64,000 nucleotides of DNA. Source: a virus. Shown piece after piece: positions 14,235 to 63,891 of the stretch. The position numbers and the translations under genes are program-made. Each line of letters begins with the position of its first letter. Position 1 is the stretch's first letter. The notes below the pieces were generated by a model. The model saw only the letters and a list, made by a program, of their open reading frames with translations, was not told the origin of the DNA and searched no databases. The DNA is taken from the IMG/VR virus record IMGVR_UViG_3300005537_000022, positions 1 to 64,000 of that record. One strand, given 5' to 3'.

Positions 14235-14500
14235 TCTGGCAGATGATCTTCGGCGCCCTCGGGGGCGTCGCCTTCGTCGCCTTCGTCGGCGGCGGCGCCG
14301 CCGCGCTCTTGCTCGGGGCGCCAGGCCGGCGGCCGGGAGCGCCGGAACCGCCGCGCGCCGCCGCCCCGGCCACGCTGCACCCCCTGGAAGGGGTGCGGCT
14401 CGGGCTGCTGCTGAGCTTCCCTGACGGGGAGCCCTGCGAGGATGATTACCTCGCCCGCGAGCCGCCGCGGGAACGTAAAGAGACAGGAGACGCCAAGTGA
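14231..14500 (+). CDS. small membrane protein
   Basis: N-terminal TM helix; GTGA coupling. Confidence 0.55.
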   Translation: MIWQMIFGALGGVAFVAFVGGGAAALLLGAPGRRPGAPEPPRAAAPATLHPLEGVRLGLLLSFPDGEPCEDDYLAREPPRERKETGDAK

Positions 14501-15162
14501 CCCAGTCCGGTTACCGGCACCGCATCATCGTCATGGACAGGTCCGGCAGCATCGCGAACATCCTCCTAGGGCAGCAGGGCGGCCTGGAAGAGTTCTTCTC
14601 CAGCGAAGGCGCCGTCGCCGCAGGACACCCCTCGGGCAAGGCCACCTACTCGCTGTGGGACTTCGACGACGCGATCCGCTGCGTGCACTCGCTCGCCCCG
14701 CTTGACGCAGTACGGGGCTATGTCATCGAACCGCGCGGCATGACCGCCATGTACGATGCCGTCGGCGACGCGGTGACCGCCGAAGGGGAGAAGCTCGCCG
14801 CCCTCCCCGAAGACCAGCGGCCCGAGGACGTGACCGTCATCATTGCCAGCGACGGCCTGGAGAACTCCTCCCGGCGCCGCGCCGGCCACGAGGTCAAGGC
14901 CATGCTGGACCACCAGCAGGACGCCTACGGCTGGCGGGTCATCTACATGGGCACCGGCCAGGACGCGTTCGCCGAGGGCGCGAAGATGGGCGCACGCGGG
15001 AACCTGACGCTGAACTACGTGAACACGAACACGGGATCGGCGAACACGTGGGCCGCCGCGTCGGCGATGCTCTCCCGCGCGCCCGTCGCCATGGCAACCC
15101 CGGCCGGCTACGAGTTCACCGAGGGCGAGCGGGATCTCGCCGAGTCCGGCGGCACGGACTAG
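14497..15162 (+). CDS. vWA domain protein
   Basis: MDRSGS, PRGMTAMYDA, IASDGLENSS MIDAS motifs. Confidence 0.85.
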   Translation: MTQSGYRHRIIVMDRSGSIANILLGQQGGLEEFFSSEGAVAAGHPSGKATYSLWDFDDAIRCVHSLAPLDAVRGYVIEPRGMTAMYDAVGDAVTAEGEKLAALPEDQRPEDVTVIIASDGLENSSRRRAGHEVKAMLDHQQDAYGWRVIYMGTGQDAFAEGAKMGARGNLTLNYVNTNTGSANTWAAASAMLSRAPVAMATPAGYEFTEGERDLAESGGTD

Positions 15163-15181: not shown

Positions 15182-15457
15182 ATGCCGCCCCGCGACCCGA
15201 GGCTCTGCCCCGCGCTCGAACGCGCCCTCCCCGCCGGCGACGTCCCCGGCGGGGAGTACCGGCCCGTCCGCGAGCCCTGCCTCGTCATGTTCGGCGACGG
15301 CCAGTGGCACCAGGTGACCGTCAGGGCGCGCAGGAAAGACCGGCTGGGACGCGACATCATCGACATCGAATGGCACGCGGCCTGGTCGACGTGGAACGAA
15401 AGCTACGTCGCCACGCCGGAACTCATGAGGGAGCCCCCCGGGCCGGACGGCCCCTGA
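15182..15457 (+). CDS. hypothetical protein (SH3-like beta fold possible)
   Basis: ORF with CATCAT -10-like hexamer 6 nt upstream of ATG. Confidence 0.55.
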   Translation: MPPRDPRLCPALERALPAGDVPGGEYRPVREPCLVMFGDGQWHQVTVRARRKDRLGRDIIDIEWHAAWSTWNESYVATPELMREPPGPDGP

Positions 15458-15466
15458 CGGCGGTCC

Positions 15467-15601
15467 TCAGATCGAGGACTGGAAGCAGGCCGGCTTTTCC
15501 GGCGCGTGCTCCGGGGCGAGCACATGGACGGGAACCGCGGCGAGCTCCGCGAGCGGGACGTCACGGAGATCGCGGATCGATGAGACTGCGCTACCGGTCA
15601 T
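15467..15601 (-). CDS. FxSxx-COOH (FxsA-type) RiPP precursor-like peptide, 44 aa
   Basis: MTGSAVSSIRDLRDVPLAELAAVPVHVLAPEHAPEKPACFQSSI*: DLxxVPLxEL leader motif and terminal FQSSI; TAGCAT -10 7 nt before ATG. Confidence 0.8.
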   Translation of the reverse strand: MTGSAVSSIRDLRDVPLAELAAVPVHVLAPEHAPEKPACFQSSI

Positions 15602-15647
15602 GCGGCTGATGCTAGCGGGCGGCGCGCTCCCCCGGCGGCACTCTCCG

Positions 15648-15667
15648 GCACGCACGGCGCACGCACG
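15648..15667 (+). repeat. left pair of putative integrase arm-type sites
   Basis: GCACGCACG at 15648 and 15659 (11-bp period). Confidence 0.7.
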
Positions 15668-15680
15668 GAGATCCCGGTTC

Positions 15681-15706
15681 ATCCCGTCGCATCCCGTCGC
15701 ATCCCG
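15681..15706 (+). repeat. 10-bp tandem repeat in attP arm (possible Xis/RDF sites)
   Basis: ATCCCGTCGC x2 plus ATCCCG. Confidence 0.5.
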
Positions 15707-15776
15707 GCAACCCGATCCGGCCGTGAGCAGCCAGGACGCCTGCCGCCGTCGCATCGCGGTGGGTCCCGGCAGGGAA

Positions 15777-15844
15777 GGCGCCGCACTGCTAATGCGGTTA
15801 GGGTCTACAGCCCTTCCGGGGTTCAAATCCCCGAGCCTCCGCCA
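15777..15844 (+). other. attP core: 3' portion of tRNA-Ser(GCT)
   Basis: anticodon arm CCGCA-CTGCTAA-TGCGG, long variable arm, T arm CGGGG-TTCAAAT-CCCCG, AGCCTCC-GCCA end; 5' acceptor strand and D arm absent; adjacent to integrase. Confidence 0.9.
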
Positions 15845-15915
15845 GTTCCAGCGGGATTTCCGAATACCCGGCCCGTTCCGTGCGGCTGCCCGTTCTGTCC
15901 CTGTTTGACGGCCGG

Positions 15916-15935
15916 GCACGCACGAAGCACGCACG
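15916..15935 (+). repeat. right pair of putative integrase arm-type sites
   Basis: GCACGCACG at 15916 and 15927 (11-bp period). Confidence 0.7.
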
Positions 15936-15943
15936 CGCATGTT

Positions 15944-17407
15944 TCAGCGGCCCTCCCCGGCACCCGCGGGGCGCGCCCTCCGGGGGACGATCGCCGCGGC
16001 GCGCTCCGCCGCGGCGGCGGCCACTTCCGGGAACACGGTCACGTACACGGCGTCGGTGAACGACGTCCGGGAATGGCCGAGTATGGCCGAGATCACCCGC
16101 GTGTCCTCGCCAGCGGCCTTCAGCAGCGACGCCGTCCCGTGGCGCAGGTCGTGGAACCTCACCGGCGGCAGGCCGGACCTGAAGGCGAGGATCTCGAACC
16201 GCACCGAGGTCCACTGCGCCGGAACCTCCGACCCGTCCTCCCGCGTGAACACCAGGTCGGTGTCGGGCCAGTCGCGGCCCCACGCGAGACGGTCGGCCGC
16301 CTGGGCCTTCCGCCACGCGCGCAGCGCCGCCAGGGCCGGGCCGGGGATCGGGACCGCGCGGACGGACGTCTCCGACTTCGGCCCGCTGCCGCTGCCGGTC
16401 TTCCGCACCCAGATGACGCCCTGGTCAAGGTCGGCCTCGGCCCACGTGAGCCCGAGGATCTCATCCCGGCGCAGGCCGCAGTACACGGCGACGGCGAACA
16501 GGACGGCGAGCCGCTCGCGTTTCTCGTCGAGGTAGTCGAGGAACCGCCCGGCGTGCCAGGGCATCCACACCATGACCGGGCAGGGCCGCAGCGCGGGGGC
16601 CGCCCAGGCGTCCTGCCGCTCGACCGAGGACAGGGAGCGGCCCGCCTCCCATTCCGCGGCGGCCATGTGCTTCGCGAGCTCCCTGCGGAACTTCGCTTCC
16701 CGCGCGGGGGTCCACGCCAGGGGCTTCACCATGTCCGCGTGCGGGAGCTCGACCCCCGTGCACGGGCTGAGGGGGATCTTCTTGGTCGCCGCGGCCGCCT
16801 TCATCGCGGTCCTGAACGGGGCGAGCATCCGCTCGACGCGGGCCGGGGACAGCGGCCTGGTCGACTTCTTCCTCCGCGCCTCGCCCTCGGGCAGGTTCCG
16901 CCGCGCGTCGTCGGCCCGGGCCGCAGTCATGCGCAGCAGCATCTCCGACGGCTTCTCCCCGGCCGGGAGGGGCCGGTTGACCCGCAGCATCTCGGTGATC
17001 ACCTGGGACACCTGGTCGTCGCGGACGTCGGCCAGGCGCAGCTTCCCCAGGGCGGGCTTCCAGTACAGGCGGAACGCCTCTTCGTAGCTTTCGCGCGTCC
17101 GCGGCTTGAGGTTCCGCTTCCCTGCCAGCCAGGTGTCCAGGTAGGCCGCCACGCGCAGGGACCTGTCGGCCTGGCGCCGGCCGCCGCCGCTGCGCGCGAT
17201 CGCCTCGGCGAGGTCGTCCTCGGCTTCCTTCTTCGTGTCGAACGGGCCGAGGACCGGCTGCCTGCGCTCTTCTGTCATGGAGTCGTAGCGGGCGTACCAC
17301 TTCCCGTGCTTCGGGGACTTCAGCTTCGGGCAGGGGGACGACTTGGGGTACCGCCTCCGCGTTTCCGGGTTCCGGCACCAGCACTGCCGGTAGACGCTGC
17401 CCCTCAC
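15944..17407 (-). CDS. int: tyrosine integrase
   Basis: GLRRDE, PKS, FHDLRH, LGHS, catalytic Y (DAVY); GTG overlaps repressor stop. Confidence 0.95.
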   Translation of the reverse strand: MRGSVYRQCWCRNPETRRRYPKSSPCPKLKSPKHGKWYARYDSMTEERRQPVLGPFDTKKEAEDDLAEAIARSGGGRRQADRSLRVAAYLDTWLAGKRNLKPRTRESYEEAFRLYWKPALGKLRLADVRDDQVSQVITEMLRVNRPLPAGEKPSEMLLRMTAARADDARRNLPEGEARRKKSTRPLSPARVERMLAPFRTAMKAAAATKKIPLSPCTGVELPHADMVKPLAWTPAREAKFRRELAKHMAAAEWEAGRSLSSVERQDAWAAPALRPCPVMVWMPWHAGRFLDYLDEKRERLAVLFAVAVYCGLRRDEILGLTWAEADLDQGVIWVRKTGSGSGPKSETSVRAVPIPGPALAALRAWRKAQAADRLAWGRDWPDTDLVFTREDGSEVPAQWTSVRFEILAFRSGLPPVRFHDLRHGTASLLKAAGEDTRVISAILGHSRTSFTDAVYVTVFPEVAAAAAERAAAIVPRRARPAGAGEGR

Positions 17408-18057
17408 GGCTGCCGCCGCTTCGCCAGGGCGCGCTCGAGCACGTCCTGGAGGAGGGCGTTCTGCTCCAGGAGGGTGCCGATGACGGGATGGGCGCGCTGG
17501 AGTTCCTCCCGGGCCGCGCGGGCTTCCGCGAGCGCGGCCGTGATCTGCTCCGCCGCGGCGAGGCCGGGTGCCGAGGGGACGGCCGCGGCGACTTCCGCGG
17601 CGGCCTCGCTGCCGACGTACCGGGCCTCGGCGGTGATTACGGCCTGCTGGTAGGCGGCCCCGGCGCGGGAGTCGGCTTCCCAGTTGAGCTCGGTCATGAG
17701 GCACCGGTAGTACTCCTCCATCGGGACGCTCCCGCTGGCGATGACGTAGCGGCAGGCGGTGCCGTCGTCGTCGGGCGGCAGGAAGAACGCCGGGATGGGG
17801 ATGCGGAAGATGCTGGCCAGGTCGGCGAGTTCGTCGGCGTCGAACTTGCGGACCCGCCTGCCGTCCCATGACCGCTCGGCCGCCGACACCGCGGTCTTGG
17901 TCCAGCCGCCGAGCTCCGCGCCGAGCTGCTCCTGGGTCATGCCGGCCGCGCGCCGCCACCGGGCGATGTTGTAGGCGACGAGCATGTTCACGGTGATCGC
18001 GCGTTCCGGCGGGGCCGCCCGGCCCGGTTCCCTGCCCGCGTCGCTGATGTCATCCAC
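17404..18057 (-). CDS. XRE-family HTH immunity repressor
   Basis: NIARWRRAAGMTQEQLG...VSAAER; co-transcribed with int; TATGCT 6 nt before GTG (leaderless). Confidence 0.85.
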   Translation of the reverse strand: MDDISDAGREPGRAAPPERAITVNMLVAYNIARWRRAAGMTQEQLGAELGGWTKTAVSAAERSWDGRRVRKFDADELADLASIFRIPIPAFFLPPDDDGTACRYVIASGSVPMEEYYRCLMTELNWEADSRAGAAYQQAVITAEARYVGSEAAAEVAAAVPSAPGLAAAEQITAALAEARAAREELQRAHPVIGTLLEQNALLQDVLERALAKRRQP

Positions 18058-19139: not shown

Positions 19140-20623
19140 CCCCTTACCCTGCGGGCGCGGACACCGTCCCCCTGCCCCTCGCAGAACCGTCAACCGGCCC
19201 GCCGACGGGCGGGCAGCTCGCCGCCCTCGGCGCCCTGCGCCGGGTCGCGGAGGAGCAGGCCCGCGGAACGGCGCAATCCCCGCCCCACCGTTCCCGCGGC
19301 GAGCGGCTGCGCCCCCTCATCGCGGCCGGGGTCATCACCGGGACCGTGCTCGGGATCGTGATCGGCATGCGCGCCGCATGGCACCCGGGCGGGCGGCCGG
19401 AGGTGCGGCTCGGCTGGTACGGCACCGCGGTGTCGCTGCTGCTCGGGTCGAAGCTGCTGCTTTCGCTGCTGGCCCGCCCGGTCCCGGACTCCCCGCGGGC
19501 GCGGGCCCTGCTGGCCCGCGCCCGGGTCGCCGCGGTGATCACCCTGTACAACGAGGACCCGGCCGCGTTCGCCGCGTGCCTTGACTCGCTGCTGGCGCAG
19601 ACGTCGATGCCCGCCGCGGTGACGGTGGTCGACGACGCGTCCGCCGGCCCGCGGTGCGCGGAGCTGGCCAGGTCGCGGGTAGGGGAGTTCGCCGCCCGCG
19701 GCACGCTGCTGCGGGTCGTCACGTTCCCGGAGAACCGGGGCAAGCGGGAGGGGCTCGCCGCCGGGTTCCGCGCGGATCCGGAGGCGTTCGCGTACCTGTG
19801 CGTGGACAGTGACACGATCCTGGCCCCGACGGCGCTGGAGCGGCTGATGCGGCCGATGACGTCGCGGAAGGTCCAGGCGGTGACCGGGTGCGTGCTGGCC
19901 GCGAACCGGGACAGGAACGTGCTCACGCGCCTGATCGACCTGCGCTACGCGTACGCGTTCCTGGGCGAGCGCGCAGCGTACAGCGTTCTCGGCTCGGTGC
20001 TGTGCGTGTGCGGGAGCCTCGCCCTGTACCGCGGCTCGACTGCCCGGAAGTACCTGCCGGCGCTGACCGGGCAGCGGTTCCTCGGCCTGCCGTGCACGTA
20101 CGGGGACGACAGGCACATGACGTTCCTCTGCTTGAAGGAGGGGAAGGTGGTGCTCGCGCCGGACGCCGTGGCGTGGACGCTCGTCCCGTACCGGATGGGG
20201 CATTTCCTCAGGCAGCAGCTCCGGTGGAGCAAGAGCTTCTTCCGCGAGTCGGCGTGGATGCTGGCCAGGATGCCGCCGTGGCGTGCCTGCTGGTGGCTGG
20301 CCCTGGTCGAGACGGTCACGTGGCTCGGGTTCACCGCAGCGCTCACCTGGTCGCTCGCGGTCCGGCCGGCGTTCACCGGCCAGTTCGCGGCGCTCGCCTA
20401 CCTGGCGTCGGCCCTGCTCCTGTCATATGCGCGGGCCGGTCATTACGCGCGGGCCGAGCACCCGGGGATGACCTGGCGGGGACGGCTCCTGACGCTGGCG
20501 ATCGCCCCGCTGTACGGGGCGATCCACATGGTCCTGCTGCTCCCGCTGCGCCTCGTCGCCCTGGTCACGCTGCGCGACCCGAGGTGGGGGACGAGGAAGA
20601 CAGTCGAGGTCGAGGCATCATGA
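19136..20623 (+). CDS. processive GT2 glycosyltransferase (hyaluronan synthase/NodC-like)
   Basis: YNED, VDD, NRGKRE, DSD, GDDR, QQLRW, WGTR motifs; N- and C-terminal TM helices. Confidence 0.92.
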   Translation: MTPYPAGADTVPLPLAEPSTGPPTGGQLAALGALRRVAEEQARGTAQSPPHRSRGERLRPLIAAGVITGTVLGIVIGMRAAWHPGGRPEVRLGWYGTAVSLLLGSKLLLSLLARPVPDSPRARALLARARVAAVITLYNEDPAAFAACLDSLLAQTSMPAAVTVVDDASAGPRCAELARSRVGEFAARGTLLRVVTFPENRGKREGLAAGFRADPEAFAYLCVDSDTILAPTALERLMRPMTSRKVQAVTGCVLAANRDRNVLTRLIDLRYAYAFLGERAAYSVLGSVLCVCGSLALYRGSTARKYLPALTGQRFLGLPCTYGDDRHMTFLCLKEGKVVLAPDAVAWTLVPYRMGHFLRQQLRWSKSFFRESAWMLARMPPWRACWWLALVETVTWLGFTAALTWSLAVRPAFTGQFAALAYLASALLLSYARAGHYARAEHPGMTWRGRLLTLAIAPLYGAIHMVLLLPLRLVALVTLRDPRWGTRKTVEVEAS

Positions 20624-62867: not shown

Positions 62868-62985
62868 CCGGGGCACCTCCCGGGAACTGGAAAGGCCCCG
62901 GGCCTGGCCGAAGCCTGATCCGGGGCACACGTCTCCTGGGCCTGATACTGACATGTCAGGAACGGGAGCGCAATCCGGCGCGCGG

Positions 62986-63891
62986 TCAGGCGAGGGTTTC
63001 GGGCTGCCGGCCGTCCGCCCACCGGGCGTAGCGCCTGGTCCAGTCCCGGTACCCGGCCTCGGTCATGACGTCGCCGCACTCGGCGCACACCGACCACGGA
63101 GGGTCCTGGCCGGGGTCGTCGGGCAGGTCGGCCCGGCGGAGGGCGAGCATGTCGCATTCCGGGCAGGGGACGCCGAGCAGCTCGACCGGGCGGGGCCGGG
63201 TCTCGCCGAGGGCGGCCCGTGCCATGCGGTGGAGCCAGAGGATCTCCAGTCCCGCGTCGGCGCCGCCGAGCTCGGGGCGCATGGCGGCGTAGCCGGAGCG
63301 GACGGTGCCGTCGGGGGCGGCGTCGCCGAGCATGGCGATGAGATGGTGGGCGGCGGCGCGGCGCACCGGCTCCGGCTCGAGGGCGAGCAGGGCGTCCAGG
63401 CGGGGGGACAGCACTTTCACGGCCCGGTCCACGAGCCAGCCGTCCCGGACGATCCTGCGGCCCTCGCCGTCGCGGTCGGGCAGTTCCGCGAGCGAGGCGA
63501 CGCCGGCGACGCGGTCATGCCAGGAGGCGAGGGACTCGGTGATGGCGCGCATGAGGGCCTCGGTGCCGAGGCCGAACGGGATGCGGGGGCCGAACGGGGA
63601 GCGGACCGCCGTAGTGCCCTGTCCCGGGTTCCGGAGGTCCCCGGCGAGCGCGGCGTAGTCGCGGGGCAGGGCGTCCAGGGCGGTGGCGGCCTTGCCCCGG
63701 TCGGGGTCGCAGAAGGCGCGCGGGCCGCGGAGGGGGATGCGTTCCGGCCCGTCGGGGCCGTCGGCGGTGACGGCGGACGCGCAGTGCTCCCCCAGGGCGC
63801 AGGGGCGGCCGTCCAGGGGCCTGCCGTCGCGTTCCGGATCGCCGCGGAAGCTGGTTGACGGGGGTGAATATGCCCAGGGAGGCAGTGCCAT
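62986..63891 (-). CDS. Zn-finger protein, putative late transcription regulator
   Basis: C...C..FC N-terminus, CPEC..CAECG C-terminus; usual position upstream of HTH and terminase in actinobacterial prophages. Confidence 0.65.
   Translation of the reverse strand: MALPPWAYSPPSTSFRGDPERDGRPLDGRPCALGEHCASAVTADGPDGPERIPLRGPRAFCDPDRGKAATALDALPRDYAALAGDLRNPGQGTTAVRSPFGPRIPFGLGTEALMRAITESLASWHDRVAGVASLAELPDRDGEGRRIVRDGWLVDRAVKVLSPRLDALLALEPEPVRRAAAHHLIAMLGDAAPDGTVRSGYAAMRPELGGADAGLEILWLHRMARAALGETRPRPVELLGVPCPECDMLALRRADLPDDPGQDPPWSVCAECGDVMTEAGYRDWTRRYARWADGRQPETLA

Follow-up and report, generated by a model that had tools for sequence, protein, structure and literature searches.

A diverged FxsA-type (FxSxx-COOH) precursor gene beside the attP site of a temperate actinophage

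The 64,000-nt stretch of viral DNA analyzed here (hereinafter, the window), part of a 98,382-nt record with a CheckV completeness estimate of 100%, encodes next to a phage attachment site a peptide of 44 amino acids (aa) that, judged by its sequence, is a genuine, albeit diverged and atypical, member of the FxsA (FxSxx-COOH) family of cyclophane RiPP precursors. Under our preferred interpretation, to which we assign a probability of roughly 0.55, this peptide is a diverged FxsA-family precursor that a temperate actinophage carries as single-gene cargo in its attP-proximal arm and that is matured by the host and modulates the host Fxs system. The initial annotation of this DNA described an FxsA-type precursor that was phage-borne, adjacent to attP and orphan, and all these elements stand; what did not follow is a score above the cut-off of the curated hidden Markov model (HMM) of the family. 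The locus contains the following features:

14497-15162 (+): 221-aa phage protein with no assigned function (phrog_7371, 4e-36; 62-68% identical in three IMG/VR phages)
15182-15457 (+): 91-aa gene with no assigned function (58% identical homologue beside the FxsA ORF of the related phage G011)
15467-15601 (-), including the stop codon: FxsA-type (FxSxx-COOH) precursor ORF, 44 aa (sequence, HMM, hhalign)
15602-15614 (-): candidate -10 element of a leaderless transcript, TAGCAT (15614-15609), followed by 7 nt and ATG
15674-15771 (no strand): direct repeats of CATCCCGTCG-type units at 15674-15709, with a further copy at 15746-15771, candidate P-arm integrase arm-type sites
15759-15844 (+): tRNA-Ser(GCU)-like attP (ARAGORN; only 28 bits with Rfam; tRNA alignment)
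15944-17407 (-): tyrosine integrase, 487 aa (PF00589, 2.9e-21; PF14659)
17404-18057 (-): HTH (XRE-type) repressor-like gene (HTH_3; 61% identical homologue in G011)

The 44-aa ORF extends on the minus strand from the ATG at 15601-15599 to the TGA at 15469-15467, with frame, start and stop all intact, and its product consists of a leader with DLRDVPLAEL (residues 11-20), followed by HVLAPE and the C-terminal ACFQSSI, so that the F-x-S-x-x motif directly precedes the stop codon (FQSSI-TGA). As originally described, this ORF forms the end of a longer open frame, which comprises 157 aa (15467-15940) and passes antisense through the tRNA-like attP. The GC content at the three codon positions is 0.66/0.73/0.73 in the upstream 113 codons, a non-coding pattern, versus 0.71/0.51/0.80 in the 44 codons, which show the coding pattern of a genome with 71.7% GC, the third-position value (GC3) of 0.80 falling short of the 0.85-0.98 seen for most genes in this DNA; none of the plus-strand frames over the same bases is coding-like. 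The public gene call at this locus is a 71-aa product (P0002) that starts at an upstream ATG, but 44 aa is the better call because the homologues from the related phage locus L017 and the metagenome contig L096 both begin with Met-Thr at the 44-aa start. The TAGCAT-N7-ATG pattern pointed out previously is present, and the L017 copy starts in a similar context (TACTCT, 6 nt, GTG); thus, by their sequence pattern, both resemble the leaderless starts frequently used by actinomycetes. The ORF is not preceded by a Shine-Dalgarno sequence, and a scan for sigma-70 promoters and terminators, with a consensus ill-suited to actinomycetes, found nothing. Among public sequencing runs, window DNA is present in one DNA run, a soil metagenome that is probably the source, with no RNA run listed.

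The assignment of the ORF to the FxSxx-COOH precursors is supported by a sub-threshold match to the curated model, by hhalign and by a custom HMM. In the NCBIfam search with the 44-aa peptide, TIGR04268 was the sole match (21.3 bits, E 2.4e-4), short of the curated cut-off of 28 bits, and the aligned part reported was the leader only, with the block (A)DLRD(V/I)PLAE(L/M) aligned to model positions 2-20. Because high-GC DNA such as this can yield spurious TIGR04268 matches of 14-16 bits, independent tests were sought. One such match, at 62967-63044(+), was rejected as a chance similarity, being antisense to a 301-aa gene and having no FxSxx end; it gauges the noise level of this model in high-GC DNA. 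The C-terminal motif alone is insufficient as well, given that 354 kb of DNA contained 7 ORFs of at least 30 aa with an F.S..-stop ending, or roughly one per 50 kb.

With three peptides as seeds, a profile search retrieved 96 proteins, nearly all of which had a precomputed PF27839 match or were named FXSXX-COOH in their source, and 55 FxsA peptides from this set, with the window and L017 peptides left out, made up the alignment (A4) used for further comparison. In the subfamily with the most members, the consensus reads ADLRD(I/V)PLAE(M/L)PALGLDVLGRTIGRVLP...VPVAAFQSSI, with FQSSI being the commonest ending (55 of 95 retrieved FxsA peptides), so that the DLRDVPLAEL and FQSSI segments of the window peptide both represent the consensus of this subfamily. 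With hhalign, the 44-aa peptide matched the 55-peptide profile at 96.7% probability (E 3.8e-10) over residues 6-44 and 39 columns. The custom HMM built from the 55 peptides was run with filters off against every stop-to-stop frame of at least 25 aa in all six frames of the 98,382-nt record (1,670 frames), where it gave the window ORF 27.3 bits (E 2e-7) and the next best frame 8.3 bits; on the other loci (557 kb, 11,544 frames), the same HMM detected only clear FxsA genes, the noise not exceeding 8.8 bits. As a lead only, the two nearest clusters of the peptide in the ESM Atlas are both named FXSXX-COOH (score 0.83).

Other searches with the peptide returned little. The 71-aa gene call of the window has no precomputed PF27839 match, and a Pfam search of the peptide gave no match at E up to 10, the copy of Pfam used apparently being without PF27839. 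No close homologues were detected among 5.8 billion clustered proteins (word-indexed search) or 1.84 billion cluster representatives (phmmer), and scans of viral contigs and genome contigs with the 71-aa call recovered only the peptide itself.

The orphan status of the precursor, proposed for the 64 kb, extends to the whole 98,382-nt record. No match was found there to the FxsB radical SAM/SPASM enzyme (TIGR04269) nor, at E<=0.001, to the HExxH peptidase (TIGR04267), the Fxs TPR protein (NF040586, FxsT) or FxsC (TIGR04276), the last being a weak blank, with a model that matched in no control genome. With no maturase on the phage, the peptide would be cross-linked and cleaved only by host enzymes.

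The attP beside which the peptide gene had been placed is genuine, as indicated by both the tRNA alignment and the metagenome assembly. Compared with three intact tRNA-Ser genes adjoining related integrases (L026, L027 and L103), only the 3' ~58 nt of the predicted tRNA-Ser, from the anticodon stem to the 3' end, match a real tRNA-Ser, the 5' part being unrelated. Both the window and L017 keep only these 3' ~58 nt, with the 5' half replaced by a common unrelated motif, CGTCGCATCGCGG. This motif belongs to the local direct repeats of the window, which are present, as the left arm repeats of the initial annotation, at 15674-15709 and 15746-15771, and represents, going by its sequence, a plausible arm-type integrase site. 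Thus, the locus combines a 3' tRNA piece with a tyrosine integrase, and intact tRNAs adjoin related integrases, as is typical of the tRNA-type attP of temperate phages. In the source metagenome, contigs of 16.2 kb and 82.1 kb end or begin within 15810-15842, which places the crossover core at about 15810-15842 and implies that the assembled molecule is the attP form; the depth is 48-49x in both arms and 117-207x in the 33-nt core. The start codon of the peptide lies ~210 nt from this core. Short contigs of the same metagenome (18-77x) can be aligned to 15777-15842, from which they differ by an A>G substitution and the loss of 1 nt shortly before the core (15807-15809); these are probably the intact tRNA-Ser of the host or attP sites of other phages. 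A scan of genome contigs with the exact 44-nt tRNA 3' piece, in search of attB, yielded no match, and blastn of the region against GenBank phages gave only a 66-nt tRNA-like match.

On both sides, the peptide gene is flanked by phage genes. The 221-aa gene belongs to phrog_7371 and has homologues in IMG/VR phages, so that the left flank, which also holds the phage-conserved 91-aa gene, is phage DNA, in agreement with the originally claimed phage carriage; the 91-aa gene is convergent with the peptide gene, the two stops being 9 nt apart. The N-terminal DRSGS of the 221-aa protein resembles a vWA MIDAS site, with no Pfam match, and its homologues extend to giant-virus MAG records at 27-34% identity. 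Relatives retrieved via the 221-aa gene share only that gene, a weak tblastn match in L005 turned out to be a tRNA region, and TIGR04268 is absent from five such records. On the other side of attP, the end of the repressor-like gene overlaps the start of the integrase gene by 4 nt (17404-17407), so that the two appear to be co-transcribed and translationally coupled. Over 400 relatives of the integrase were detected at 60-79% identity, soil metagenomes being the source of nearly all of them.

Used as a single query of viral contigs, the integrase returned nothing; an alignment of related integrases was needed, and this retrieved three IMG/VR phages. The closest is phage G011 (124,995 nt, direct terminal repeats, estimated 100% complete), in which, at locus L017, an integrase with 69% identity is followed by the same tRNA-Ser-derived piece as in the window and, ~470-640 nt past this piece and within 650 nt of attP, by a 56-aa FxsA ORF with the tail ...DIPLAEMPALGLDVLGKVIGRALPDP...AGAFQSSV-stop. 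The FxS C-terminus is therefore conserved near attP of a related phage. The 56-aa ORF is itself a public gene call (P0124) with a precomputed PF27839 match, aligns with TIGR04268 end to end at 16.9 bits and scores 62.5 bits with the custom HMM; its product aligns with the window peptide at E 5e-5 when the two are compared by BLASTP once. The genes common to the two phages are the integrase, with attP, the 91-aa gene, the repressor and about eight others, and little else, with the peptide gene and the 91-aa gene in swapped order. Because these phages share little overall, the FxsA gene belongs to a shared integration/immunity module in two mosaic phages. Loci L018 and L019, with integrases of the same family, have no FxsA gene. 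Altogether, FxsA was found in two (the window and L017) of 32 integrase-family loci, namely, the window and 31 others whose integrases share at least 55% identity and for which no less than 900 nt of downstream sequence was available, although this denominator is soft because many of these loci probably are integrated prophages with the peptide arm at the far end. The FxsA gene is thus an occasional cargo that most phages with this integrase family lack.

Stand-alone FxsA genes, with no fxsB in the record, were identified in seven other IMG/VR records (G011, G006, G008, G009, G007, G010 and G014), a lower bound since these scans rest on two short patterns each. Four of the seven are estimated to be 100% complete and have terminal repeats, namely, G011, G006 (113 kb), G008 (55 kb, inverted terminal repeats) and G009 (119,829 nt, direct terminal repeats). 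In G009, three tandem FxsA-like ORFs (L107:4621-5366), with the ends AAFQSSI, AAFNSSL and AAFNASL, are located between two blocks of a tRNA array. On the metagenome contig L096, ~800 nt separate a tRNA-Thr and its adjoining integrase from a canonical FxsA gene (46.3 bits), the GTG start of which overlaps by 4 nt the stop codon of the preceding phosphoesterase-like gene. A calcineurin-like phosphoesterase-type gene (weak YfcE-family match) recurs near orphan FxsA genes, at L096:4283-4876(-), L116:7156-7782(-) and 19482-20051 of G011, lying 2-3 kb from FxsA in the latter two, whose copies of the gene share 90% identity with one another and 54-56% with the L096 copy; it is absent from the phage of the window. 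A tblastn search of FxsA peptides, with short queries and the low-complexity filter on, against 50,697 GenBank phage records and the PLSDB plasmids gave no match, PHROGs contained no FxsA match, and in the open-access literature searched, no paper on phage-borne FxsA copies was found.

Among all the FxsA sequences found, the window copy is the most diverged, and the divergence is non-uniform. The linker between PLAE and the Phe comprises 20 residues, ~9 fewer than the mode of 29, whereas the other peptides span 24-38; the I-G-R-x-L-P motif has lost the Arg that is invariant in all 55 aligned members, possibly through replacement by the His of HVLAPE; and the residue before the Phe is Cys, as opposed to Ala in 55 of 55 aligned and 85 of 89 retrieved peptides with the motif ending. 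By contrast, the two functional blocks match family variants at every position (10/10 and 5/5). The shortened linker, the lost Arg and the Cys before the Phe together imply that the window peptide may be a poor or dead substrate. These changes fit an account that we consider unlikely, in which an FxsA gene was gained from the host or another phage into a variable cargo slot at attP and is now decaying, nonfunctional and still open. The sub-cut-off score, the lack of close relatives, the low GC3 and the rarity of FxsA in this slot across the integrase-family loci are all in line with such decay. However, two functional blocks have been retained perfectly while the rest changed, in an intact frame. 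Moreover, at conserved residues, four copies (the window, L017, L096 and L116) use differing synonymous codons (for instance, CTC/CTG/CTA for Leu, GCG/GCC for Ala, GAG/GAA for Glu and TTC/TTT for Phe), which indicates protein-level constraint across the copies rather than simple retention of DNA, and the recurrence of orphan FxsA in many unrelated phages argues for selected carriage.

If, as preferred, the precursor is matured by the host and acts on its Fxs system, recognition would presumably depend on the blocks that have been kept, DLRDxPLAE, xVLxPE and FQSSx. Speculatively, with a shorter linker and no invariant Arg, the peptide might be a binder that is poorly processed, in other words an inhibitor; the shortened window version, in which a portion of the leader is missing, might even serve specifically for competitive inhibition instead of being a substrate. 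The system on which the peptide would act has been described by Kaur, Burroughs, Iyer and Aravind (2020, eLife; PMC7159879), who placed the FxSxx peptide, together with a metallopeptidase and an rSAM-SPASM enzyme, within the vWA-MoxR (VMAP ternary) systems of actinobacteria, which have a TIR/AP-ATPase effector, and predicted the peptide to be a toxin or signal of this predicted conflict system. FxsB is listed among the cyclophane-forming rSAM-SPASM enzymes (PMC10114670). MAGs named Trebonia sp. (Treboniaceae, Streptosporangiales) are the source of an integrase relative (64% identity) as well as of two FxsA peptides of the FQSSI type, and one Trebonia-type FxsA cluster has members on contigs of 247 kb and 486 kb, which, from their size, are taken to be chromosomal DNA. 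Thus, the host is probably a soil actinomycete, a Trebonia-like member of Streptosporangiales, and these observations point to the presence of the matching host-type peptide in such bacteria.

In mechanistic terms, the peptide gene would be transcribed leftward from its own candidate leaderless-type promoter. From the geometry of the locus, integration would place the gene just inside the prophage end opposite the integrase, ~210 nt in and reading inwards; given this siting and its own candidate promoter, the peptide could be made both in lysogens and during infection. The FxsB radical-SAM enzyme of the host would then cross-link the FQS motif (in triceptides, or three-residue cyclophane RiPPs, a 3-CyFE radical SAM enzyme joins the aromatic residue to residue +2 by a C-C bond, with a mass change of -2 Da), and the host HExxH peptidase would cleave the product, which, either by itself or through competition of the precursor for the host enzymes, would modulate the Fxs conflict system with its TPR-vWA component and TIR/AP-ATPase effector. 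Such modulation, whether by blocking or by triggering, would benefit the phage or the lysogen.

The same location accommodates a second account, which we regard as rather improbable, namely, that the prophage contributes an extra or altered Fxs peptide that primes the host against superinfecting phages or competitors, a defence benefit conferred by lysogenic conversion as opposed to anti-defence. The future prophage end combined with a candidate promoter of its own is a typical moron position, the phage is temperate, with an integrase and a repressor, and the peptide of the host system is predicted to amplify that system (PMC7159879). Nevertheless, large, apparently lytic tRNA-array phages, such as the one with three tandem ORFs (L107), carry FxsA as well, and this fits counter-defence better. 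A very slim chance is left for an arbitrium-like signalling peptide that serves the phage autonomously, independent of the host Fxs machinery: a small peptide gene within an integration/immunity module is compatible with such a role, but there is no signal peptide, no receptor gene was recognized next to the peptide gene, and the similarity is specific to the leader and core motifs of a RiPP family that needs FxsB. Finally, a chance ORF in the attP arm that merely resembles FxsA, as its short length, the sub-threshold curated score and the background of spurious matches and F.S.. endings might suggest, is effectively refuted by the end-to-end profile match, the 19-bit gap to the next frame in the genome, the low noise of the custom HMM across the other loci and the homologous ORF in the same module of the related phage.

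A broader possibility, which we put forward tentatively, is that temperate and lytic actinophages carry stand-alone FxsA look-alikes and exploit the radical-SAM maturase and peptidase of the host either to produce the peptide controlling a TIR/STAND-type conflict system or to prevent its production, a form of counter-defence or defence hijack by RiPP-precursor mimicry. If such mimicry is real, it would constitute a new class of counter-defence, a RiPP precursor dependent on host enzymes; if, instead, the window copy is a relic, what remains is a minor annotation of cargo beside attP. The repeated gain by phages of the peptide gene alone is indirect evidence that the Fxs system matters during infection. 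The phage FxsA copies also provide natural variants for probing the action of the peptide, and the DLRDxPLAE block and FQSSx end that survive in the shortened copy show which parts of the precursor a phage retains.

Among the known systems, the vWA-MoxR (VMAP) systems (PMC7159879) contain the same type of peptide (FxSxx) as the window phage, whereas their metallopeptidase, rSAM-SPASM, TPR-vWA and TIR-AP-ATPase genes are absent from this phage. The FxsA family (TIGR04268, TIGR04269, PF27839) resembles the window peptide in size (44 aa), the DLRDVPLAEL leader, the FQSSI-COOH end and a near-full-length profile match, and differs from it in the longer linker, the invariant Arg, the residue before the Phe and the score relative to the cut-off; unlike the FxsA genes that accompany FxsB, the window gene is on a phage and has no FxsB, HExxH peptidase, FxsC or FxsT in its replicon. 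The orphan FxsA genes of other uncultured actinophages are, like that of the window, stand-alone, without fxsB and often near tRNA genes or att sites, but they score 31-62 bits with the custom HMM and have the full linker, compared with 27 bits and a shortened linker for the window copy, which is located ~210 nt from a mapped attP core. Phages of the sublancin/SPbeta type carry a whole cluster consisting of the precursor, modifying enzyme and immunity, whereas the window phage carries the precursor only. What it has in common with phage-encoded RiPP clusters, such as sublancin on SPbeta (10.1101/2020.10.01.322628), is the presence of RiPP-related genes on a temperate phage.
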